Shown here: in pieces, positions 20,813 to 43,721 of the stretch | How positions within the stretch are numbered: position 1 is the first letter of the stretch | Layout: every line of letters starts with the position of its first letter | Assembly (NCBI GenBank): GCA_963785725.1 | Contig: CAWAWS010000014.1 | Span: forward strand, 128,001 to 192,000 | Reading direction: 5' to 3' | From: an uncultured delta proteobacterium | Lineage (GTDB): Bacteria; Myxococcota_A; Polyangia; Palsa-1104 | DNA: 64,000 nucleotides | Notes under the pieces: model-generated | Database searches by the model: none | Seen by the model: only the letters and a program-made list of their open reading frames with translations | What the model was told of the DNA's origin: nothing | Program-made: the position numbers and the translations under genes

Positions 20813-21127
20813 GTTCGGAACCTCTCGTTTCGCTCAGCCGCTACTTACGCAAGCCCGAGGCCGAAAGTTCTTTTCCGCGCGCCGATCGCGGAAGTCGGCG
20901 GCGTCCGCGGCTTTCGTGCGGCGCGGCGTGCCTGGTCGCACAGCGTGCGCAGCGTCAGTGGCGCCACCGACACGCTCCGGCGCGGCTTTTAGGACACATC
21001 GGCAATAACGCGCGGGCGAGCGCCGTTATTCATTTAACGGAGTGACTCGAAACTAGTGACGGTTTGAAGCGGAAATAAATTCGTATGCGAATGCGGCGCG
21101 AAATCGAGCGGAAATGATCAGCCGCTT

Positions 21128-22615
<1,488 letters not shown>

Positions 22616-26024: not shown

Positions 26025-26095
26025 TTGACGCGTGTCCTACCGGTAGTAAGATGTGGGATGAAGTGAGATGAAAGACTACTTAATTAAGTATCTTT
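26025..26095 (+). promoter_or_regulatory. Promoter plus palindromic operator upstream of the XRE-pilMNOPQ operon
   Basis: TTGACG (26025), 16 nt, TAAGAT (26047); perfect palindrome TACTTAATTAAGTA at 26077-26090. Confidence 0.55.
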
Positions 26096-26146
26096 TATAT
26101 TCTCTTGACGCTGAGGAGGATGCGATCCCATCATCTTCGTCGGCAG

Positions 26147-26455
26147 ATGGAAGCGCACGAGAAGAACGAACCGAAGTCGCCGGACGACGCCAAGGAGGAG
26201 GCGAAGCCTAGCCCGAGCGCACCTGTGCGCGCGGCGAAGGGGACCAAGGTGAAGAACAACGTCCGCAAGTTGCGGACGGAACGGATGATGAGCAAGGCGG
26301 AGCTCGCGCGGCGCGCCGCACTTTCAACGCTCACCATCGACCGGGTCGAGCGCGGCATGAAGGCGCGGATGGATACGAAGCGGAAGATCCTCGAAGCCCT
26401 CGGGTTGAAGCCGACGGATCGGGTCATGGTCTTCGGCGATGCGGAAGAAGACTAA
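26147..26455 (+). CDS. XRE-family HTH regulator
   Basis: NNVRKLRTERMMSKAELARRAALSTLTIDRVERG...TKRKILEALG; start uncertain. Confidence 0.8.
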   Translation: MEAHEKNEPKSPDDAKEEAKPSPSAPVRAAKGTKVKNNVRKLRTERMMSKAELARRAALSTLTIDRVERGMKARMDTKRKILEALGLKPTDRVMVFGDAEED

Positions 26456-26504: not shown

Positions 26505-27545
26505 ATGGCGAAGAATTGCATCGGCCTTGATCTGGGGAGCTCGGCCGTCAAGGTCACCCAGGTGAAGAAGAAGGGCAGCGGATTTCAGCTGCTGAACTTC
26601 GGCATCGAGCCCATCCCGCCGGACACCATCGTCGACGGTGCCATCCTCAACCACTCGGGCGTCGTAGATGCGGTCCGCGCGCTGTTCGAGCGGCTCAAGA
26701 TCAAGCAGAAGGAAGTCGCGCTCGCCATCTCGGGCAACGCGCTCATCATCAAGAAGATTTTCGTCCCGGCGATGACGCCGGACGAGCTCGAAGAGCAGGT
26801 ACCGTGGGAAGCCGAGCACCACATCCCGTTCAATCGTAACGACGTCGAGATCGACTATCAGGCGCTGGGCGGCAAGAACGCGCAGGGCCAGATGGAGCTG
26901 CTCTTGGTCGCGGCCAAGAAGGAAGTGGTCGCCGACTACGCGGCCGTCGCGCGCGAAGCGCAGCTGACGCCGGTCGTGGTCGATGTCGCCGCCTTCGCGG
27001 TGCAGAACGGCTTCGAGGCCGCGTACGGGCCGATGACCAACGAGGTCGTCGCGCTCATCAACGTCGGCGCCTCGTTATCCAACATTAATATACTGGCGGG
27101 TGGGACTTCGGCCTTCACGCGCGACGTCACCACCGGCGGCAACTCGTTCACCGACGACATCAAGCGTCATCTCGCGGTCTCCGGCGAAGAGGCCGAGGCG
27201 CTCAAGGTCGCCTACACCGAAGGTGACGCGTCGCAAGACGTGGGCCGCGTGTTGCAGATGACGTCGGCGCAGATGGCGGGCGAGTTCCAGAAGTCGATCG
27301 ACTTCTTCTTGGCCTCGCATCCCGACACGGCCATCGCCAAGATCTACTTGGCCGGTGGCTCGGCGCGCGTGCCGCCGTTGTTGAGCGCGATCGAGCAGCG
27401 CGCACGTGTGCCGGTCGAGATCATGGATCCCTTCCGCGACGCGTCGGCGGCGCACATCGATCCGGCGTTCCTGCGCTCGCACGGGCCGCAAGCGGTCGTG
27501 TCGCTCGGCCTCGCGCTGCGCTCGTCAGGGGACAAGTTCCAATGA
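26505..27545 (+). CDS. pilM: Type IV pilus assembly protein PilM
   Basis: IGLDLGSSAVK, WEAEHHIPF, LINVGA, YLAGGSA, SLGLALR. Confidence 0.95.
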   Translation: MAKNCIGLDLGSSAVKVTQVKKKGSGFQLLNFGIEPIPPDTIVDGAILNHSGVVDAVRALFERLKIKQKEVALAISGNALIIKKIFVPAMTPDELEEQVPWEAEHHIPFNRNDVEIDYQALGGKNAQGQMELLLVAAKKEVVADYAAVAREAQLTPVVVDVAAFAVQNGFEAAYGPMTNEVVALINVGASLSNINILAGGTSAFTRDVTTGGNSFTDDIKRHLAVSGEEAEALKVAYTEGDASQDVGRVLQMTSAQMAGEFQKSIDFFLASHPDTAIAKIYLAGGSARVPPLLSAIEQRARVPVEIMDPFRDASAAHIDPAFLRSHGPQAVVSLGLALRSSGDKFQ

Positions 27546-27576
27546 TCGCGCGGGTGAAACGAGCGGTGGTGTACGC

Positions 27577-28212
27577 ATGATCAGGATCAACTTATTACCG
27601 GTCAAGGCGGCCAAGCGGCGCGAGCAGGGGCAGAAGCAGCTCCTCGCCGGCGCCGTCATCATTTCGCTGACGCTGGTCGGCATCATCGTCTTCCACGGCG
27701 CCGAGACGTCGAAGCTGGCGGCGCTGCGCGAGCACAACCAGCAGGTCTCGCACGACATCGCCAAGCTGAAGGCGGAGATCGGCGACTACGAGATCATCAA
27801 GGCGCAGCGCGACGAGCTGATCAGGCAGCGCGACGCCATTCGCCGGCTGCAGGCCAATCGCTCGGGCCCGACGTTCATGATGCGTGAGCTGTCCGACATT
27901 CTGACGCCGGGCAAAGGCCCGACGTTCAACAAAGAGCAGTACGAAGAGTCGATCAAGCGCGCGCCCGATGTCGGCTTCAACCCCAATTGGGACACGCGCC
28001 GCGCGTGGCTGCTGAGCTACATCGAAGAGAACCACGCCGTGAAGATCCATGGCGGCGCCAAGAGTGACGAAGACGTCGCCGAGTTCTTGAAGCGGCTCAA
28101 GGTGAGCGCGTTCTTCTCGGACGTCTACTGGCAGCAGACGCAGCCGCAGGTCGATTCGCGGCTCAACGTCTCGTTCGTGACCTTCGACGTGACGTGCCGG
28201 GTGAACTATTGA
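27577..28212 (+). CDS. pilN: PilN
   Basis: MIRINLLP motif, TM, coiled coil. Confidence 0.92.
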   Translation: MIRINLLPVKAAKRREQGQKQLLAGAVIISLTLVGIIVFHGAETSKLAALREHNQQVSHDIAKLKAEIGDYEIIKAQRDELIRQRDAIRRLQANRSGPTFMMRELSDILTPGKGPTFNKEQYEESIKRAPDVGFNPNWDTRRAWLLSYIEENHAVKIHGGAKSDEDVAEFLKRLKVSAFFSDVYWQQTQPQVDSRLNVSFVTFDVTCRVNY

Positions 28213-28244
28213 GCGCCGCGGCCCGAACGGAGATGAGGTAGGCG

Positions 28245-28886
28245 ATGCAGAACATCTTCGACAAGATCGCGTCGCTGCAGCTGCTGGCGAAGATCGGAAT
28301 CGCCGTCGGTGCGGTGCTTCTGTTGGTCGGCGGCTATTACTACTTCTTCTACGGCGACATGCTCGACGAGCAGGCGCAGCTGGAGAAAGATCGCGACCGG
28401 CTCGAGCGCGAAAAGAAGGACTACGAGAAGCGCAAGCAGGAGTATTTGGCCTTCCGCAACGAGGTCAACGCGCTGCTCGAGGAACAAAAGGAGCTGCTGC
28501 GCGTCCTACCGAAGCGCGACGACATCGAGCAGTTCATCGAGAGCGTGCAGGCGCAGATCGAGCTGTCGGGGTTGTCGAAGGTGTCGTCGATTCGCGACGC
28601 GGCGCAACCGGTGGAGATGTACATCAAGATTCCGATCAAGATGTCGCTCTCGGGCACTTATCACCAGATCAACCACTTCTTCAAACAGGTGGGCGATCTC
28701 AAGCGCATCGTGAATATCGAGAACTTGTCGCTGGAGCCGATGGCGCCGGCAGCGAACGCGCCGCTCGATCAGGCGAACCAGCTGAAGGCGAACTTCGTGG
28801 CGACGACGTTCCAGTTCGTCGACAAAGACGCCGGCGCCGGGCCGCACAAGACCGGCGTTTCGATCTCGACGGGTGGTCCCAAGTGA
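28245..28886 (+). CDS. pilO: PilO
   Basis: TM, coiled coil, LPKRDDIEQF, GTYHQINHFF...LKRIVNI. Confidence 0.92.
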   Translation: MQNIFDKIASLQLLAKIGIAVGAVLLLVGGYYYFFYGDMLDEQAQLEKDRDRLEREKKDYEKRKQEYLAFRNEVNALLEEQKELLRVLPKRDDIEQFIESVQAQIELSGLSKVSSIRDAAQPVEMYIKIPIKMSLSGTYHQINHFFKQVGDLKRIVNIENLSLEPMAPAANAPLDQANQLKANFVATTFQFVDKDAGAGPHKTGVSISTGGPK

Positions 28887-29473
28887 GCCGCTTCATCGTC
28901 TGGTCGTTGCCGCTGTTCCTGCTGATTGGCTGCAGCGGCGACGAGACCAGCAAAGGGCCGCCGCCGCCGCCGATGCCGCACGCGGGCGGGACGCCGGCGC
29001 CGACCGCGGCAGCGGGCGCGGCCGCCGCCGGCCAGCCGAGCGTCGATCAGTCGAAAGAGGCGCTGTTGGCCGAAGTGCGCAAGCGGCAGCTGACGAGCGA
29101 CGACTTCAAGGAGTCGCCGTCGAACCGCGATCCGTTCCGCTCGTTCTTGACGACGTTCGCGACGCAGGTGGTGAACGTCAAGCCGCAGCATCGCATCGTC
29201 CTCGAGAAGTTCGCGCTCGAGGAGCTCAAGCTCATCGCCATCGTCGGCGGCAACGGCGAGACGCCGAAGGCGATGTTCGTCGATCCGACGGGAATGGGCG
29301 TGACGGTGGTGCGTGGCGATCACGTCTCGAAGGTGGACGCGCTCGTGACGCGCGTGGCGCCCGATCGGGTCTTCTTTCAGCTGGAAGAGGACTTGGGCAA
29401 TGGCGGCAAGCCGAAGCTGAGCGAACGCGTGGTCGAGCTGCACGCGGGCGAGAACATCGGAGCAGGGCAATGA
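28883..29473 (+). CDS. pilP: PilP lipoprotein
   Basis: LIGC lipobox; RDPF; LEKFALEELKLIAIV...AMFVDPTG. Confidence 0.9.
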   Translation: MSRFIVWSLPLFLLIGCSGDETSKGPPPPPMPHAGGTPAPTAAAGAAAAGQPSVDQSKEALLAEVRKRQLTSDDFKESPSNRDPFRSFLTTFATQVVNVKPQHRIVLEKFALEELKLIAIVGGNGETPKAMFVDPTGMGVTVVRGDHVSKVDALVTRVAPDRVFFQLEEDLGNGGKPKLSERVVELHAGENIGAGQ

Positions 29474-29589
29474 GCGACCGTCAGGGAGCGAATGTGAGCG
29501 ACCAGCCCGTAGGGCTAGCGGATCGGCGTTCTGGCTCGTTGACCTCTGAAAGAGGTCACACGAGCAGCAAGACTCCCAAAGGAGCCTTC

Positions 29590-32500
29590 ATGAGGCGTTC
29601 TTCTGTCGGGCTGGCGACGTGGCTTGCACTTGCCGGAGTGGCGAGCGCGGGCGAGAACGTCGTCAGCAAAGTGACTGCGCACGCCGAAGGCGGCAAGACG
29701 GTGATCGTCGTGCACGGCTCGGCGACGCCGAGCTTCACGGCTTATCGGCTGGAGAAGCCGGCGCGCATCGTGGTCGACGTGGCCGACGGCAAGTGGAGCA
29801 CGGCGGAGCTGGGCCAAGGGCCGGTCGACGTCGACACGTGGGCCGTCAATCAGATGGCGGCGGCGCAATATTCCGACGAGGCGAGCCGCACGGCGCGGCT
29901 GATGATCGGCTTCAAGCGGCCGGCGACGTACGACGTCAAGGCGACCGGTCACGACCTGGTGATCACGGTGACGCCCGACGAGCCGATGCCGGCGGCGTTG
30001 GCGCAAGTGGCGCCGCAAGCGGCCGCACCGACGGCGGCCGACCTGGCCAAGCTCGACGAAGCGCGCAAGAAGCGCGTCGAGGCCGAGGCGCAGGTGGCGG
30101 CGACCGAGCAGCGGCGGCTGAAGGCCGTCGAGGCCGAGCATGACGCGCAGTCGCGCGCCGGTGACGCCGATCGCGAGGCGGCGGCGGCCAAGCTGCGCGC
30201 GCAAGCAGCCAAGGACGAGCTCGAGCACGTCATCGCGGCGCGTAAAGTGGAAGAGCAGCGGCTGGCGGAAGCGCAGAAGCGGACGTCGACGGCGACGGCG
30301 CAGAGCGAGACGGCGCGGGCCGAAGCGCAGGCGGCGCAGAGCGATCGCGCGCGGACGGCGGGCGATCTGCAGGCCGAGCAGGCGCGTCTGGTGAAGCTGC
30401 GCGCCGAAGCGATGGCGCTGTCGCGTGAGCGTGAGCTGGAGGCGAAGAAGCTGGCCGAGACGCAAGCGGCGGCGCGCAAGGCGATCGTCGAGCGGCAGCA
30501 GCACTTGGCCGACGCGGAGTCGGCGGCGCGGGCGCGGCAGGCGGAGTCGGAAGCGGCGCGCGTGGCCGAAGAGCGGCGGGCCGATGCGCGCGCCGAAGAG
30601 GCGGCGCGACTGGCCCAAGCAGCGACGGCGGCCGAGCGGGCGCGCACGAGCGAGACGGCGTCGCGTGAGGCCGACAAGCGCGCGAACGATGCGTTGACGC
30701 GGGCGCACGACGCCGAGAACGCGGCGCGCTCGGAGGCGTTGCGGCTGCAGGCGATCAAGCGTGACGCGGCGGCGCAGGCGGCGGAGGCGGCGGCGGCGCA
30801 GGCGAAGCTGCAGGCGGCGCGGGTCGAGCTGGCGAAGCTGACGGCGGCGCAGGAGACGGAGCGGGCGCGCGTCGACGAGGCGCGGCGGGACGCGGCGCGG
30901 GTCGCGGCCGAGCGCGCGCAGGCGGCGGAGCGGGCGGAGCACGCGGCGGCGTTGGCGTCGGGCTCGCTCGAGAAGATGCGAGAAGCGGAGCGCGAGGCGC
31001 GCAAGATCGCCGACGAGCGCGGCAAAGAGTCGGCGCGCTTGGACGAGGTGCGGCGTGAATCGGCGGCCTTGGCGGCGCAGCGCACGCAGGAGCTGGCGAA
31101 GCTGGAAGTCGCGCGCGGCGAAGCGGCGCGTGTCGAGACGGCGCGGCGGGCCGAAGAGACGCGGCTGGCGCAGCTCAAAGGCGAAGTGCAGAAGCAGTCG
31201 GACGAGCTCAAGCGGCAGGCGGAGCTGACCCGCGTGGCCGGCGACGAGACGCGGCGGCAGCAAGAGGCGGCGCGTTTGGCCGGCGACGAAGCGCGCAAGC
31301 AGTCGGAAGCGGCGGCGCGCGCCGGCGACGAAGCGCGCAAGCAGTCGGCAGCCGCGGTGCGCGCCGGCGACGAGGCGCGCAAGCAGTCGGAGGCGGCGGC
31401 GCGAGCCAGCGACGAGGCGCGCAAGCAGTCGGAAGCGGCGGCGCGAGCCAGCGACGAGGCGCGCAAGCAGTCCGAGCTGGCGCGCAGCGCCGGCAAAGAG
31501 GCGCAGCAGCAAAAAGACGAGACGCGCAAGCTCAACGAGGCGGCGCGCTTGGCCAGCGACGAGGCGCGCAAGCAGCAAGAGGCCGCGCGCGTCGCCGGCG
31601 ACGAAGCGCAGCGACTCAAGGACGAAGCGCAGCGGCTCAAGGACGAAGCGCGCCGGCAGTCGGACGCGGCCAAGTTGGCGGGCGATCAGGCGGCGCAGGC
31701 GCGCAGCGAGCTGGCGCAGCTGTCGGCGGCGCAGTCGGCCGAGCGCGCGCGGCTCGTGGCGGCGCAGAAGGACGCGGCGCGCGTGGCCAAGCAGCTGGCC
31801 GAGCTCGACGCCGAGCGGCTGGCAGCCGAGAAGCGCGCCAAGGCGCAGGCGGCGGCTTCGGCGGCGTCGTCGGCCGACGAGAAGGCGCGGCTCGAGCGCG
31901 AGCGTAACGATTTTCAACGGCAGCTGACGGCCGAGCGGGCGCAGCTGACGAAGAAGCTGGAGACGGCGCAGGCGGAAGTGGCACGCGTCGCGGCCGAGCA
32001 GCAGCGCAAACAGGCGGAGCGCGCGCAGCTCGACGAGCAGCTGCAGGCGGCCCGCGCGGAGTTGCAGCGCATCGAGCAGACGACGCGCGAGCGGTTGGCG
32101 ATGGTGCCGACGCCGGCGAAGGTGGCCGCGGCTGCCAAAGTCACGCCGCCGGCGCGCAACATGAAGGACGCGCTGCCCGTCGACAAAGTGGCGGCCAAGG
32201 TGCGCGACGTGCGCTTCGCCGACGACGAGAACGCCGAACGCGTGATCTTGGAGCTGCTCGGCAACAGTGACGCGACGGTCGTGCGCGCCGACGACCATGG
32301 CGCGGTGTTGAAGATCGCGCGCGCCGATCTGCCGAAGAAGCTGGAGCGGACGCTCGATGCCAGCGCCTTGAAGGGCCCGATTCGCAGCGTGTCGACCTAC
32401 GCCGACGCCGATGATCCGGGCGCCGTGCGCGTCGAAGTGGCGCTCGCCGACGGCGGGCCGCACGTGGCGCCGACGCTGGTGCGCGACGGCGGCACGCTGA

Positions 32501-33926
32501 CCTGGGAATTCCCGCGCGGCACGCGCTCGCTGGCGCCGGCCAAGGTCGCGCCTTACGGCGTCGAGATGCCGCTGCAAGTGGCGACGGTGACGCCGACGCA
32601 GCCGCAGCGCAACAGCGGCCGGCAGCGCAAGACGTTCAGCGGCCGGCGCATCGACCTCGACTTCAAGGATGCGGATATCCACAACATCTTGAAGCTGATC
32701 GCGGACGTGGCGCAGGTGAACATCGTCGCGGCCGAGGACGTGAAGGGCACGATCACGATCCGCCTGCGCGACGTGCCGTGGGATCAGGCGCTCGACATCA
32801 TCCTGCGCGCCAAAGGGCTCGGCATGCAGCGCGAAGGCAACCTCATTCGCGTCGCGCCGCAAGCGGTGCTCGAGAAGGAGATCGAGGCCGAGGTGGCGCG
32901 GGCCAAGGCGCGGTCGAGCTCAAGCCGCTCGATACGCGGCTCATCGCGCTCAGCTACGCCGACGGGACGCAGATCTTGCCGCGCATTCAGGAAGTGATGT
33001 CGTCGCGCGGTCACGTGTCGGTCGACGCGCGCACCAATCAGCTCATCGTCACCGACGTGGCGGCGAATATTTCGCTGGCCGAAGACCTGGTGCGCAATCT
33101 CGATACGCAGACGCCGCAGGTGCTCATCGAGGCGCGCATCGTCGAAGCGGACACGACGTTCGAGCGCGACATCGGCATCCAGTGGGGCGGCAACACGATC
33201 AACTCGACGGCGACGGGCAATCCGACCGGTATCGTCTTCCCGTCGACGCTCGGCGTCGGCGGCGGCGCCACCGACACGGCGACGTCGACCGCCGGTCTGC
33301 AAGGCGCGGGCGCGGCGTCGCCGAACTTCGCGGTCAACATGCCGGCCGCCGTCGGCACCGGCTCGGGCGGCGCCCTCGGCCTCACGCTCGGCTCGGTCAA
33401 CGGCAACTACAACATCAACTTGCGCTTGTCGGCGCTCGAGAACACCGGCTGGGTGCGCATCGTGTCGTCGCCCAAGATCATGACGCTCGACAATATCGAG
33501 GCCACGATCGAGCAGGGCACGTCGATCCCGGTCTCGGTCGTCAGCGCCGCCGGTGCCAACACCATGTTCGTCGACGCCAAGCTCAACCTCACGGTCAAGC
33601 CGCACGTCACCAACGAAGGCTCGATCTTGATGACGGTGCTCATCACGCGTAACGAGCCCGACTTCGTCAACACCGCCGCCAACGGCACGCCGACGATCCA
33701 GAAGAAGCAGGCGCACTCGCAGATGCTCGTCCGCGACGGCGACACCGCGGTCATCGGCGGCATCTACACGCGCAACAGCGGCTTGTCGTACACGAAGGTG
33801 CCGTGGTTCGCCGAGATTCCGGTCATCGGCTGGCTCTTCAAGGCGCGCAAAGAGAACGACAACCGCACCGAGCTCCTCATCTTCATCACGCCGCGCATCA
33901 TCAACCGCAGCGTCGTGACGCGCTAA
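29590..33926 (+). CDS. pilQ: Type IV pilus secretin PilQ, ~1,445 aa with a giant coiled-coil insertion (one missing base at ~32910)
   Basis: AMIN-like domains; FSGRRIDLDFKDADIHN, LRDVPWDQALD; secretin core QVLIEARIVE...ELLIFITPRII is in another frame. Confidence 0.93.
31237..31488 (+). repeat. Six consecutive 42-bp (14-aa) repeats inside pilQ, with degenerate copies to ~31690
   Basis: A(G/S)DEARKQSEAAAR units start at 31237, 31279, 31321, 31363, 31405, 31447. Confidence 0.9.
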
Positions 33927-37635: not shown

Positions 37636-37995
37636 ATGTTCCAGGAGAACCTCAAGCGGCTGGTTGCGGAGACCGAAGGCGGCGTGGCCGGCCTGCTCAT
37701 GGGCTTCGACGGCATCGCGGTCGACAGCTACTCGGCGCCCAACGGCGGCATCGACATCCAGACCGTCGGCATGGAGTTCAGCTTCATCTGCGGCCAGGTG
37801 CGCAAAGCAGCCGAGATCCTCGAAGTGGGCGGCGTGCAGGAGATCGCCATCCGCTGCGCGCAGCTGACGATCCTCATCCGCGTGATCAGCGTCGAGTATT
37901 TCGTGGCGCTCGCGCTTCGCCCCGACGGTAACTTCGGCAAAGGGCGCTACCTGCTGCGGGTCGTCGCGCCCAAGCTGCAGGCGGAAATCGCCTAA
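37636..37995 (+). CDS. mglC: Roadblock/LC7 polarity protein MglC
   Basis: MGFDGI and [17 protein letters not shown] closely match M. xanthus MglC as recalled; located downstream of pilQ. Confidence 0.85.
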
Positions 37996-38004
37996 GCAGC
38001 GGAT

Positions 38005-38468
38005 ATGGACTCGGCCCCGCACGTCATGGTGCTGCACGGGCCCAACCTGAATTTGCTGGGCGCGCGCGAGCCGCGAATTTACGGCGCGACCACGTTGCCC
38101 GAGATCGATCGGCTGCTGGCGGAAGCGGCGCAGGCGCGCGGCGCGACCGTCGAGTGTCACCAGTCGAACATCGAAGGCGTGCTCATCGATTACATCCAAG
38201 CGGCGGGCAAGACAGCGCACGCCATCGTCATCAACCCGGCGGCGTATACGCATACGTCGGTGGCGATCGCCGACGCGTTGCGCGCGGTGAAGCTGCCGGC
38301 CGTCGAGGTTCACCTGTCGAACGTGCACGCGCGCGAGGACTATCGGCGACAATCGTTCGTCGCCGCCGCCTGCGTCGGCACCATCGGCGGCTTCGGCGCG
38401 CGCAGCTACACGCTCGCGCTCGAGGCCGTGCTCGACCTCCTCCAGGCAAACACGGTAAAGAGAAACCC

Positions 38469-38472
<4 letters not shown>
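38005..38472 (+). CDS. aroQ: Type II 3-dehydroquinate dehydratase
   Basis: [38 protein letters not shown]. Confidence 0.96.
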
Positions 38473-39032
<560 letters not shown>

Positions 39033-39039
39033 TCGGCCC

Positions 39040-40395
<1,356 letters not shown>

Positions 40396-40462
40396 CCGGT
40401 TTGATTGCGCCTCGTAAAATTTGAGTGTCCGTCTTCAGTTAAAGGAGTCGGCGCGGAGCCAG

Positions 40463-43400
40463 GTGGCGACGAATAAAGACAAGCTGATTGCTGGAGCTCA
40501 GAAGCTGGTTGAAAAGAACCAGTTCGAGAAGGCGATCAAAGAATATTTAAAGGTCGTCGCCGAGGACGACAAAGACGTTCCGGATCTGGCTCAAGATCGG
40601 CGATCTCTACGCCAAGCTCGGCAAAAAGAGCGAGGCGGCGGAGACCTATTCCAAAGTCGCGCAGTTCTATAGCGACCAAGGCTTTTACCTAAAAGCCGTC
40701 GCTGTTTATAAGCAGATCCTCAAGATCGAGCCGCGGCTCGTCGACGTGAACCAGAAGCTGGCCGAGCTGTACAAGCAGCTCGGTCTCTTGTCGGACGCGA
40801 TGCAGCAGTACGAAGCCGTGGCGGCGTTTTATCATCGCGAAGGCAAGACGCGCGAAGCGCTGGCCGCGCTCAAGCAGATCGTCGAGCTCGATCCGGAGAC
40901 GGTCGCCAATCGCATCAAATTGGCGGAGCTGTACTCGAAAGAGCAGATGGCGCGTGAGGCCATCGACGAATTCTCGAAGGCCGCCGAGCAGCTGCGGCAG
41001 GCGGGGCGCGTCGACGATTTCATGAAGGTCGCCGAGCGTCTGCTGTTCCATTCGCCGGACAATCGGCCGGTCACCAAGGAGCTGGCCGGGCTGTACATCG
41101 AGAAGGGCGATCCGCGGCGCGCGCTGCCGAAGCTGCAGATCTGCTTCAAGGCCGATCCGCGCGATACCGAAGTGTTGTCGCTGCTGGCGCGCGCGTTCGA
41201 GGCGCTCGATCAGCGGCAAAAGTCGGTCAGCGTGCTGAAAGAGCTGGCGCGCATTTTGGGCGAGAACGGCGACAATCGCGCGCGCGACGCCACGTGGCGC
41301 AAGATCATGCAGCTGGCGCCGGGCGATCCCGACGCCGAGGCGGCGTTGTCGAGCGCCGGTCGGGCGCGCTCGCAGCCGGCGATCGAGACGGCCGCGCCCG
41401 CGCCGCCGCCACCGGCGCGCAATGCGACGGGCAGCGCCGTCGCCATCGGGCGCATCGCGCCAACGAACGCGACGGGCGGACGGCCGGTGCAGATGAGCGC
41501 GTCGGGCCGCGTGCAAGCCTTGCGCGACGAGCCGCCGGCGCCCGAGCCGAACGCGCCCAAAGCGCGCACGTGGGACGGGCCGACCGTCGGCCGCGGTGAG
41601 CGCGAGCGCGATCGCGGCGACAACAGCAAAGGCTTCGAAGTCCCCGACGACTCGATGCGCAATGCCGCCGGCGCCGAAGAGGAGATCGCGCGCATCCTCA
41701 ACGAGACCGACGTCTACATCAAATACAACCTGCACGCCAAAGCCATCGAGCATTTGCAGCGCGCGTTCGAGCGTAATCCGCGGCATATCGGCGCGCGCGA
41801 GAAGCTGAAGGCGCTCTTCCTCATCCTCGGCAAGAAGGACGAGGCGGTGCTGGAGCTGTGGTCGCTCGTCGAGAGCGCCGAGCCCGGCCGCAAGCGGCGT
41901 TATCTGCGCGAAATTCTCGAGATCGATCCCGGCAACGCGCGCGCGTCCGGCGAGCTCGGCGAGAAGGTGCAGCCGTCGGTGGGCGCGCTCACGTCGAGCC
42001 TCGACGATCGCGACTACTCGGCGCCGGTGCAGCGCGATCCCGAAGGCACGGGCTCGGAGATGCTCGACGTCGACGATCTGGAGGAGCTGGACGACGACGA
42101 TTCGGCTTCGCCGCCCGATTCGTCGCCGAGCCTGTTCGCCGACGCCTTCGCCGCGGACGAGGCCGAGCGGCGCGGGCATGGCCAAGCGGCCGATCGCCGT
42201 CGCGGCGCGCCCATCGAGATCGAAGACAGCGAAGACGACGAGCTGATTCCCGTCGTCGTCGAGCAGGAGCGCGAGCCGGAAGAGGCGAGCGGCGACGAGG
42301 TCGAAGATCGCTTCGGCTTCGATCATGACGAGGAGCCGGTCGAAGACCGCTTCGGCTTCGACGACAAAGCTGACGAGTCGACGCTGCCGCCGAGCTTTGC
42401 CGAGACGGCGCTGACCGAGGAAGAAGACACCGATACCGCCGCGGGCGAGCCGGAGCGACAGCCGGAACCGGTGCCGCCGTCGCCGCCGCAGCGCGCCCGC
42501 CGCGATTCGTCGGTCGGCCGCGAGCCGGCGCCGCCGCAGCGCGCGCGTCGCGACTCGTCGGTCGGCCGCGAGCCGGCGCACGCCGCGGCGCGACCGCCGG
42601 CGCGCGAGCCGTCGCAGCCGGCCGCGCGACCGCCGTCGAAGAAGCGCAACGCCGCCGAGGAAGAGCTCGACGCCGACGTGCACACGCGCTTCGACGATCA
42701 GCCGCTGAAGTTCGATCACGCGGCGCTGTTCGGCAATCACAGCCACAGCGACGAGGTCGACGAAGCCGATCTGCCGCCGATGTCGTCGATCCCGGGCGGC
42801 ACGCGCACGCAGCAGGCGCCGAAGCTGGACGAGTTCGAGGACGACGATCTGGCGTCGCCGAACAATCGACCGATCACGCGCACGCAGCAGACGCCGGCCG
42901 GCCTGCTCGACGGCGGCGAATCCGGTCCTGTCGGCACGACGCTCGAGGACGAGCTCGACGAAGCCGACTTCTTCGTGCAGCAGAACCTGTTCGACGAGGC
43001 GCGCGTCATCCTCGAGAACCTGCTCAGCAAGCATCCCGGCCATCCGCTGGTGACGGCGAAGCTGCGCGACTTGGAGGCGATGGAGCGCGCGGCGGCGTCG
43101 GCGGCGCACGATCCGTCCGAGGCGCACGAGACGCGGCCGGGCATGTCGGCCGAGATGGACGCCGATTTACCCGACGATCTGCCGGGCGACGTCAACGCGA
43201 CGGCCACGGTCGGCGATCCCGCGGCCGCCTTCGAGATGACGCGCAAAGGCGTCATCGAAAAGGGAGTAACCGCAGAAGACTTCGAAACCCATTATGATTT
43301 GGGTATCGCGTACAAAGAAATGGGTTTGTTGGACGACGCGGTAAACGAGTTTCGCATCGTCATGAAAGACCCGGCGCGCGAGGTGCAATGCCACCTCATG

Positions 43401-43721
43401 ATCGGCCTCTGCTACCTCGAAAAGGGGCTGCAGACCGACGCCATCGGGCAGTTCAAGAAGGGGCTGTACGTCGAGGGCATCACCGAGCGCGAGGCGCTGT
43501 CGATGTACTTCGAGCTCGGGCAGGCGTACGAGCGGCTGACCGATCCGCGCGAGGCGCTCTACTATTACGAGAAGGTCATCAAGCGCGATCCGAACTTCCG
43601 CGACGTCGAGAAGCGCGTGGAAGCGCTGCGCGGCGGCGCGGCGGTCACGCCGTCCTTGCCGCAGGGCAACAGCGACGACGTCGACGCCGCGTTCGATACG
43701 CTGCTCGGCAAAGATCTGTAG
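40463..43721 (+). CDS. sgmX: Multi-TPR type IV pilus activator SgmX-like (+1 frameshift at ~40580)
   Basis: N-terminal NKDKLIAGAQKLV...KAIKEY; removing one C gives DVRIWLKIGDLY; C-terminal ETHYDLGIAYKEMGLLDDA TPRs; follows accBC. Confidence 0.8.

Follow-up and report, generated by a model that had tools for sequence, protein, structure and literature searches.

Results

The final gene of a pilMNOPQ operon in the 64,000-nucleotide stretch of DNA analyzed here (the window) encodes a type IVa pilus secretin PilQ of an uncultured myxobacterium. Its two AMIN domains are separated by a proline-free run of 692 residues (aa 148-839, window 30031-32106), which is likely to form a long coiled-coil arm. 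Arm-bearing PilQ is the commonest state among the sampled myxobacterial lineages, and none of the solved PilQ entries that were found has a coiled-coil arm of 100-300 nm per subunit.

Identity of the gene and correction of the assembly

The pilQ gene is a single gene (29590-33926) with an ATG start at 29590. The reading frame breaks near 32910, and Secretin_N and Secretin continue behind the break to the stop at 33926. Contigs from four of four runs (two studies) carried an extra base behind 32910. The intact near-twin P0008 (1449 aa) matched two different frames of the window, with 82% match in aa 1-1106 and 97% in aa 1109-1449. The break is a one-base assembly error and not a real frameshift, as the preliminary description had supposed. 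The corrected protein of 1445 aa, in which Pfam found AMIN, STN, and secretin domains, has the giant size given there. Since P0008 is intact and the run contigs contain the extra base, the insert is neither a chimera nor a misassembly. Database relatives with distant AMINs also ruled this out: two AMINs lay more than 200 aa apart in 51 of 52 matches, a set selected by a query that included the arm.

The PilQ model TIGR02515 (cut-off 284.35) gave 318.3 bits for the C-terminal piece and 437.4 bits for intact P0008, and in the same search the GspD and SctC models scored under their own cut-offs. The window secretin matched the PilQ of 3jc8 with E 3.5e-104. By homology, the window PilQ would form a 12-15-mer outer-membrane pore, and its AMINs would bind peptidoglycan.

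Table 1. Features of the pil operon and of PilQ (positions in the window)
Feature	Position	Strand	Evidence
pilM	26505..27545	+	PF11104, E 1.6e-73
pilN, 212 aa	27574..28212	+	PF05137, E 8.1e-08
pilO, 213 aa	28245..28886	+	PF04350, E 3.3e-25
pilP, 196 aa	28883..29473	+	PF04351, E 0.00086, below cut-off; operon position
PilQ signal peptide, aa 1-20, AxA-type	29590..29649	+	By eye: RR, hydrophobic stretch, A-S-A
AMIN1, aa 24-130, equivalent to M. xanthus AMIN1	29659..29979	+	Pfam PF11741, own AMIN profile, genome search
Pro/Ala hinge	29980..30030	+	Pro at aa 132, 134, 142, 147; low pLDDT
Helical arm, conserved part, aa 148-545	30031..31224	+	Family alignment, AlphaFold2 model
Helical arm, expandable block	31231..31658	+	Tandem repeats: 42-bp (14-aa) x6.5, 21-bp (7-aa)
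Helical arm, C-terminal part, aa 701-839, strongest Leu heptads	31690..32106	+	Period 3.54, z 3.6
Pro-rich hinge (VPTPAK...)	32107..32196	+	Sequence, alignment, AlphaFold2 model
AMIN2, aa 870-977, equivalent to the core-proximal AMIN of M. xanthus	32197..32520	+	PF11741
N0/STN, aa 1023-1091	32656..32862	+	PF07660, PF21305; fold matches 4ar0, 4jtm
One-base deletion error of the assembly	32910..32911	+	Extra base in run contigs; intact P0008
N3 (Secretin_N) and secretin core	32925..33926	+	PF03958, TIGR02515, 3jc8 PilQ match

Pfam analysis of the window PilQ showed AMIN, STN, and secretin families only, with one N0 and one N3 before the core. PF11741 was above its cut-off at two places (E 1.8e-13 over the full protein, with aa 873-954 as the best stretch). 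AMIN1 was matched to 3jc8 residues 33-134 by the alignment profile and was modelled with a pLDDT of about 90, and the AMIN fold matched AmiC 4bin with an rmsd of 2.4. Both AMINs retain the family motifs in 97 long forms. Pfam and our own profile thus recovered the order described earlier, in which two AMIN-like domains flank the insert and N0 and the secretin core follow.

Composition, periodicity, and predicted structure of the arm

A 693-residue slice of the arm contained A 199, R 96, E 94, Q 62, L 51, and K 43. The helix of about 690 aa, essentially without proline and rich in A/E/R/K/Q, that had been described between the AMINs was therefore found as such, its 692 proline-free residues being modelled as helical. 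Proline made up 0.1% of arm residues among the long forms. By contrast, 79 of 94 had proline in the first 30 aa behind AMIN1, and an equal number, 79 of 94, had it in the last 50 aa ahead of AMIN2. The conserved part of the arm occurs throughout the family; its identity was about 27-62% per 40-aa block, with an HAAxxASG landmark near aa 451-458. The expandable block, with nearly all Ala at one heptad position, had an occupancy of 17-31% in the family alignment.

We analyzed periodicity in 95 long linkers. The pooled hydrophobic period peaked at 3.51, and identity-at-lag was raised at all multiples of seven (1.09-1.39) and was at most 1.05 elsewhere. Seventy-six of the 95 linkers were above shuffles at z>3 (window arm, z 5.9), and acid-to-base pairs at i+3 numbered 73, compared with 26 in shuffles. 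Among indels of at least 5 aa in 41 close pairs, 74 of 134 were multiples of seven, compared with one in seven expected, a count that is not independent of the heptad pattern because slippage of tandem-repeat units of 7n residues would by itself give 7n indels. The period of 3.51 and these indels make a left-handed heptad coiled coil likely.

In the window arm, the coiled coil described for the whole insert gave a strong signal in the C-terminal part, where the a/d seam was clear (aa 701-839), but the seam was weak at aa 460-545, and aa 148-460 and 545-700 were above shuffles only with Ala counted. The periodicity of large hydrophobic residues in these last two segments was at shuffle level (z -0.3, -0.5, 0.1), and therefore Ala-cored coils or single helices may apply there.

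In the AlphaFold2 model the arm consists of five long helices, mostly at pLDDT 50-75, which are interrupted near aa 232-240, 354-357, 456-459, and 580-606; the pTM of the model was 0.30, and confidence within the arm was moderate. The continuous helix of about 100 nm proposed earlier held for helicity and for calculated length (692 x 0.1485 nm = 103 nm), but not for continuity. An intramolecular hairpin like that of EnvC or SMC was rejected, as the segment ahead of the ASG landmark (306-531) did not co-vary in length with the segment behind it (114-442; rho -0.30, p 0.16, 23 rows including some duplicates). Among the 40 of 433 run-difference rows listed, 17 of 23 differences in the arm were synonymous; dN/dS was uninformative because synonymous sites were saturated.

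Distribution of the arm in Myxococcota

The lengths of 151 hand-picked Myxococcota PilQs were surveyed. The data showed that the long insert is clade-wide and not peculiar to this genome: 102 of the 151 had the design of two AMINs with a long linker (244-2029 aa). This spread and length range had been overlooked in the preliminary description. Arm cores measured 157-2021 aa (median arm 644 aa), with wide ranges inside single families, such as 440-784 aa in that of the window PilQ. No linker between 83 and 244 aa was found among 112 two- or three-AMIN PilQs. The more than eightfold range of linker length across the clade means that the arm is no ruler for one fixed distance.

In a PilQ tree built without M. 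xanthus, all long-linker PilQs belonged to a single clade, within which short forms were also nested. The history would most simply comprise one gain and about six losses. The forward/reversed score ratio of arm sequences across families had a median of 1.05, compared with 1.02-1.09 for unrelated coiled coils, and the sister family alone reached 1.32. Homology of arms across families was therefore rejected, their likeness being no greater than that among unrelated coiled coils, and a single origin is argued solely from tree position and insertion site. The leads from an atlas search were all under 0.9 and were all AMIN clusters.

Envelope width and the pilus machine

The insert had been suggested to span an unusually wide envelope, the rod bridging the outer membrane to a distant wall as in SlpA/OmpM or Omp-alpha. 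SlpA does share the plan of a wall-binding head, a coiled coil, and an outer-membrane barrel (PMC9388160). However, the insert is N-terminal to AMIN2 and off the pore axis, and AMIN2 remains beside the pore: the distance from the last AMIN to the core had a median of 154 aa among 94 long forms, compared with 151 aa among 18 short ones. The spans of PilP (197.5 vs 195) and PilM (351 vs 349.5) were also alike in long and short forms, rank correlations of span lengths with the insert were weak (0.21-0.23), and the PilN/PilO stalks were, by eye, no longer even in the 2000-aa family. PilM, PilN, PilO, and PilP are thus of ordinary size and do not scale with the insert, while the arm varies widely within one family. 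The wide-envelope reading was rejected on these grounds, and we consider it very improbable.

In wide-periplasm secretins of the Thermus type, the channel is lengthened by additional N domains placed between N0 and the core. The window PilQ has none of these, with its single N0 and N3 and its ordinary distance from last AMIN to core.

MglC- and SgmX-like genes lie downstream, and the genome contains a TsaP gene; together they make the machine look like a polar motility machine. For Tgl, the best matches were under the cut-off. TsaP-like genes were present in 45 of 45 genomes examined (23 with and 22 without the arm), which excluded the arm as a replacement of TsaP. A linkage of the arm with SgmX was also rejected, as an SgmX-like gene was found in 43 of the 45 and both misses carry arms. 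The arm is missing from about six nested lineages that retain TsaP- and SgmX-like genes, and is therefore dispensable.

Comparison with known proteins

M. xanthus PilQ (901 aa; 3jc8/3jc9) matches the window PilQ in AMIN1, the core-nearest AMIN, N0, N3, and secretin (E 4e-103), and M. xanthus shares the pilMNOPQ order and has TsaP, MglC, and SgmX, of which the window genome holds relatives. However, M. xanthus PilQ carries three AMINs on flexible linkers (PMC10653833), whereas the window PilQ has two AMINs 739 aa apart, the 692-aa arm occupying the place of the middle AMIN and its linkers. The PilQs of P. aeruginosa, Neisseria, and Vibrio have the secretin core and N0 in common with the window PilQ, and those of P. 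aeruginosa and Neisseria also have two AMINs (PMC5285504), but their solved-structure entries (571-761 aa for the three) are too short for a long arm.

SlpA/OmpM and Thermotoga Omp-alpha follow a similar plan of wall-binding head, long coiled coil, and outer-membrane anchor; in SlpA/OmpM, an SLH head sits on a 28-nm trimeric stalk crossing the periplasm, with no second wall-binding domain at the barrel (PMC9388160). The corresponding Pfam families (SLH, single-chain barrel) were not found in the window PilQ, which thus resembles these connectors in design without belonging to their family. Delta-proteobacterial proteins with an AMIN fused to a TolA-like charged helix were reported as architecture viii by de Souza et al. 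(2008), in one sentence, apart from PilQ, and with neither secretin nor length stated (PMC2572700); the supplement file searched contains neither "TolA" nor "coiled". Pfam and NCBIfam gave no match to the TolA inner-membrane anchor helix or C-terminal domain in the window PilQ, whose arm has AMINs on both sides.

In the freely accessible literature searched, we found no description of a coiled-coil PilQ. The accessible part of a 2008 supplement lists, without comment, the Plesiocystis pacifica SIR-1 PilQ ZP_01912337 (1125 aa, two AMINs). It exceeds the short two-AMIN forms in the present survey (713-816 aa, estimated) by about 350-400 aa, and therefore, from length alone, probably carries an arm.

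Possible function of the arm

Of all parts of the pilus machine, PilQ arrives at the pole first, and it has to hold on to the wall against forces over 100 pN. The arm may bear on how PilQ locates and grips the wall. The explanation we favor, with about even chances of being correct, is that the arm is a hinged coiled coil of about 100 nm lying sideways in the periplasm, by which AMIN1 would catch and hold peptidoglycan at a distance from the pore; this retains the tether to distant or septal peptidoglycan that had been suggested earlier. The identity of the gene, its domain order, the Pro-rich hinges flanking the arm, and heptad periodicity were observed directly, as were length changes that mostly come in sevens and envelope-spanning parts of ordinary size. 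Neighboring subunits of the 12-15-mer ring would wind their arms together in parallel; if they paired as dimers, a ring would have 6-7 arms, each ending in two AMIN1 heads of higher avidity. Next to the pore, AMIN2 and TsaP would provide the anchor, as they do in M. xanthus, and AMIN1 could bind peptidoglycan of the septum or the pole as far as about 100 nm off. The outer membrane lags at the division site, and PilQ might be captured there while this membrane still trails behind; the arms would later spread retraction force like guy-ropes. Arm length may be loosely tuned in each lineage through the tandem repeats. AMIN-dependent septal and polar capture of PilQ has been shown in M. xanthus (PMC10653833) and in P. 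aeruginosa, where anchoring against force was also proposed (PMC5285504). However, a single AMIN is enough for polar localization in M. xanthus (PMC10653833), and therefore the extra reach is not obviously needed.

The arm might instead be a module for oligomerization and avidity, the coil mainly pre-bundling PilQ monomers, clustering AMIN1 heads, and speeding assembly and septal binding, with the extra length due to slippage drift. The variation of arm cores even inside single families and the conservation of the N-terminal about 400 aa within the family, beside a sparsely occupied middle block, are consistent with this, as is the finding that M. xanthus PilQ without AMINs gave no detectable multimers (PMC10653833). 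The gap in linker lengths speaks against it, and at 12-15 copies per pore the median arm is far beyond what oligomerization needs; we regard this reading as rather improbable. A TolA-like single helix, or semi-flexible leash, could hold the secretin when AMIN2 releases or the outer membrane lifts off. The AMIN fused to a TolA-like charged helix mentioned for delta-proteobacteria (PMC2572700) offers a precedent. The richness in Ala, Glu, and Arg, the strong i+3/i+4 salt-bridge pattern, and the weak hydrophobic heptads of aa 148-460 also point this way, but the pooled period is 3.51 rather than 3.6, and autocorrelation and indels both follow 7n. Charged residues make up just 35-48% of the arm, and typical single alpha-helix domains have a higher fraction; the single helix is thus unlikely. 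There is likewise little chance that arms of different secretin rings pair or repel and so set a lattice or minimal machine spacing at the pole. Rigid rods of about 100 nm could, by geometry, touch neighboring rings, and the hinges allow lateral orientation, yet a near-neutral net charge (median +0.02 per residue) gives no repulsion, and an AMIN at the arm tip suggests a peptidoglycan target over another ring.

A possible, more doubtful extension of the favored explanation concerns the ancestor of a large clade (Polyangia and several other lineages), whose machine may have had a spider-like secretin with several coiled-coil arms of 25-300 nm spreading out in the periplasm, which reached septal peptidoglycan before the invaginating outer membrane and then linked or spaced machines into a load-sharing polar network. 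If so, short PilQs such as the M. xanthus type would be exceptional, and a major structural element would be missing from the best-known T4aP architecture. The natural range of arm lengths (157-2021 aa) and several losses that look independent provide ready comparisons, and P. pacifica, as a cultured candidate carrier, would make cryo-ET feasible.

The pilQ gene and its surroundings

The window carries a pilMNOPQ cluster with aroC, aroK, and aroB downstream, and the proline-free segment between the two AMIN domains of its PilQ (the arm), put at about 690 aa in the preliminary description, was confirmed at 692 residues. The reading frame of pilQ is broken near 32910. The contigs of 4/4 sequencing runs (two studies) contained one additional base behind 32910, and the intact 1449-aa database near-twin P0008 aligned to both window pieces (82% and 97%), so the suspected indel is an assembly error and pilQ is whole in nature, encoding 1445 aa. 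The secretin-core piece scored above the PilQ model cut-off, and the protein is a genuine PilQ. Further apparent frameshifts occur elsewhere in the same assembly within the window. The glycerol kinase-like gene (21118-22429) is split over several frames and the SgmX-like gene is apparently frameshifted near 40670; frequent single-base assembly errors affect these genes and pilQ alike.

Features of the pil region and of PilQ (nucleotide positions are those of the window)
Feature	Position	Strand	Basis
pilM, pilN, pilO, pilP, pilQ	26505-33926	+	annotation and Pfam
pilQ start	29590	+	ORF reading
PilQ signal peptide	N-terminus	+	by eye
AMIN1	aa 24-130 of PilQ	+	profile searches
Pro/Ala hinge	between AMIN1 and arm	+	sequence
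Arm, 692 residues without proline	aa 148-839	+	sequence
Pro-rich hinge	between arm and AMIN2	+	sequence
AMIN2	aa 870-977	+	profile searches
N0	C-terminal to AMIN2, upstream of frame break	+	Pfam
N3 and secretin core	past frame break near 32910, other frame	+	Pfam
MglC homologue	37639-37995		7ct3, E 2.6e-27
accB/accC-like genes	38154-40395		read from ORFs
SgmX-like TPR gene	40421-43721		NF052243, E 2e-111, below cut-off

The aroC-aroK-aroB genes intervene between pilQ and the MglC, accB/accC-like, and SgmX-like genes. Judged from sequence, the mglC- and sgmX-like genes would fit a polar motility machine. The pilP-pilQ spacer (29473-29589) contains a short duplicated motif, and its length varies among related contigs. 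A small HTH_3 gene (26105-26455), which lies between a sigma-54 response regulator gene and pilM and is accompanied by two sigma-70-like sites (26025-26052 and 26105-26134), may regulate the pil operon.

Distribution of the arm

The PilQ family of the window belongs to the myxobacteria, as judged by the names of the matching database sequences ('Polyangia bacterium', 'Kofleriaceae bacterium'). Matches to the secretin core at E<=1e-45 occurred in 206/251 genomes of the class and 172/201 of the phylum. From the best 150 places of each of these searches, together with one further source, 153 loci were hand-picked for family coverage, so the arm counts describe the selected loci and not the phylum. 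Among the 112 PilQs with at least two AMIN domains, the linker was 244-2029 aa in 94 and 15-83 aa in 18, with none between 83 and 244 aa. The long-arm PilQ is real and widespread among the Myxococcota lineages sampled, and is not specific to the genome of the window.

A gene tree was built from N0-to-core sequences (151 rows; three truncated loci were left out, and the window row lacks N0). In this quick single-gene search, made without bootstrap, all 102 arm-bearing rows (six of them scored on incomplete or frameshifted frames) fell inside one 127-row clade (SH-aLRT 98), in which 25 armless rows were nested; 24/24 rows outside were armless (7 changes). A 62-row mixture-model tree, equally quick, was concordant (support 96, 8 changes), and a clade of arm-bearers alone was rejected (p-AU 8e-07). 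The simplest reading of these sequences would be one gain of the arm and six or seven losses, given the chosen outgroup. Several independent gains at the same insertion site are also possible, because no homology beyond composition was detectable between the arms of different families.

AMIN1 or both AMIN domains were also lost in some armless lineages. No AMIN domain was detectable in the PilQs of L050, L057, L062, L063, and L124 (family f12), which group as one clade within the arm-bearing forms, or in those of L111, L112, and L178; by the correlation drawn in the part of PMC10653833 covered, such lineages might be piliated all round. In family f3, of the same order as the window, only 2/18 genomes, most of them >80% complete, gave a PilQ-level match, and the pilus secretin may have been lost there. 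In family f38 (L129-L136), PilQ frames reach 2830 aa, their linkers measure 1476-2029 aa, and PilN has tails that are long, acidic, and Pro-rich; neither of the two f38 genomes tested gave an SgmX-like match. At L107 (G187), PilM and PilN share a single 655-aa open frame, an apparent fusion.

The PilQ family itself is known, and the long-arm design was not found described in the literature searched, including the parts covered of PMC2572700, PMC6060248, PMC10653833, PMC5285504, PMC9388160, PMC13190605, and PMC7668184; one supplement of PMC2572700, outside the search, may bear on it. The design goes unmentioned in the covered parts of two surveys of myxobacterial pili. The covered part of De Souza et al. 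(PMC2572700) reports an AMIN domain fused to a TolA-like helix, separate from PilQ, and lists two AMIN domains and a length of 1125 aa for the PilQ of P. pacifica.

Composition and predicted structure of the arm

The arm is 29% Ala and rich in Arg, Glu, Gln, Leu, and Lys, with strong enrichment of acid-base pairs at i+3 and i+4. AlphaFold2, run on PilQ aa 22-1107 with a 41-row alignment, modelled AMIN1, AMIN2, and N0 confidently (about 90) and the arm as five long helices of 12-34 nm each (pLDDT mostly 50-75). The model supports the helix of about 100 nm proposed earlier in helicity and length (about 103 nm if straight), but divides it into five.

When 95 long linkers were pooled, hydrophobic periodicity was strongest at 3.51 and autocorrelation was raised at each multiple of 7 up to 63; 76/95 linkers exceeded shuffles (z>3). 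Gaps between 41 close pairs were multiples of 7 in 74/187 cases, and in 74/134 of those of at least 5 aa (7n+4 gaps, 34/187); slippage of 7n repeats alone would also yield 7n gaps. In the window arm, large-hydrophobe periodicity is limited to aa 701-839 (z 3.6) and a weaker signal at aa 460-545 (z 1.8); the remainder hinges on Ala at core positions. The arm is likely to be a coiled coil. Its N-terminal part (aa 148-545) is conserved within the family, its middle is an expandable block, here of 14-aa and 7-aa tandem repeats, and its C-terminal end is moderately conserved. Two proline-free charged runs in unidentified proteins of the same genome, of 982 aa (G000:C33:54538-58962, +) and 534 aa (G000:C30:35511-38423, -), were taken as controls.

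Possible role of the arm

The ordinary periplasm is a few tens of nm wide. Since a 100-nm rod is too long to stand upright in it, the arm would lie sideways. By profile match, AMIN1 corresponds to the first AMIN domain of M. xanthus PilQ and AMIN2 to the core-proximal one; both retain the family motifs, and the arm is flanked by hinges at each end. In both M. xanthus and P. aeruginosa, PilQ is captured by its AMIN domains at peptidoglycan of the septum and the poles, and anchoring of PilQ against force has been proposed earlier (PMC10653833 and PMC5285504, parts covered). We propose, with about even confidence, that the sideways arms form parallel coiled coils and would extend the reach and raise the avidity of AMIN1, so that PilQ is captured early at the septum and load is spread.

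Arm length ranged over 440-784 aa in the window's family and 157-2021 aa overall, which rejects a fixed ruler; an avidity or assembly module whose length drifts is a rather unlikely explanation. A spacer between pilus machines is improbable, and a single-helix leash equally so. The suggestion that the arm spans an unusually wide envelope is very improbable, and the arm does not lengthen the machine axis: the last-AMIN-to-core distance and the PilP and PilM spans did not differ between long and short forms, and correlations were weak. In the longest-arm family, the additional length of PilN and PilO sits, by eye, in tails and loops; the span figures for these two proteins are rough, owing to cross-matching between their profiles. 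A hairpin was not supported by the arm comparison, and replacement of TsaP was rejected, as TsaP was found in 45/45 genomes tested.

The genome of the window also encodes a stand-alone 233-aa protein with a single AMIN domain and a Pro-rich linker (L189:1429-2130, G000:C12); solo AMIN proteins of similar size are recorded for M. xanthus, Stigmatella, and Sorangium in the covered part of a published supplement.
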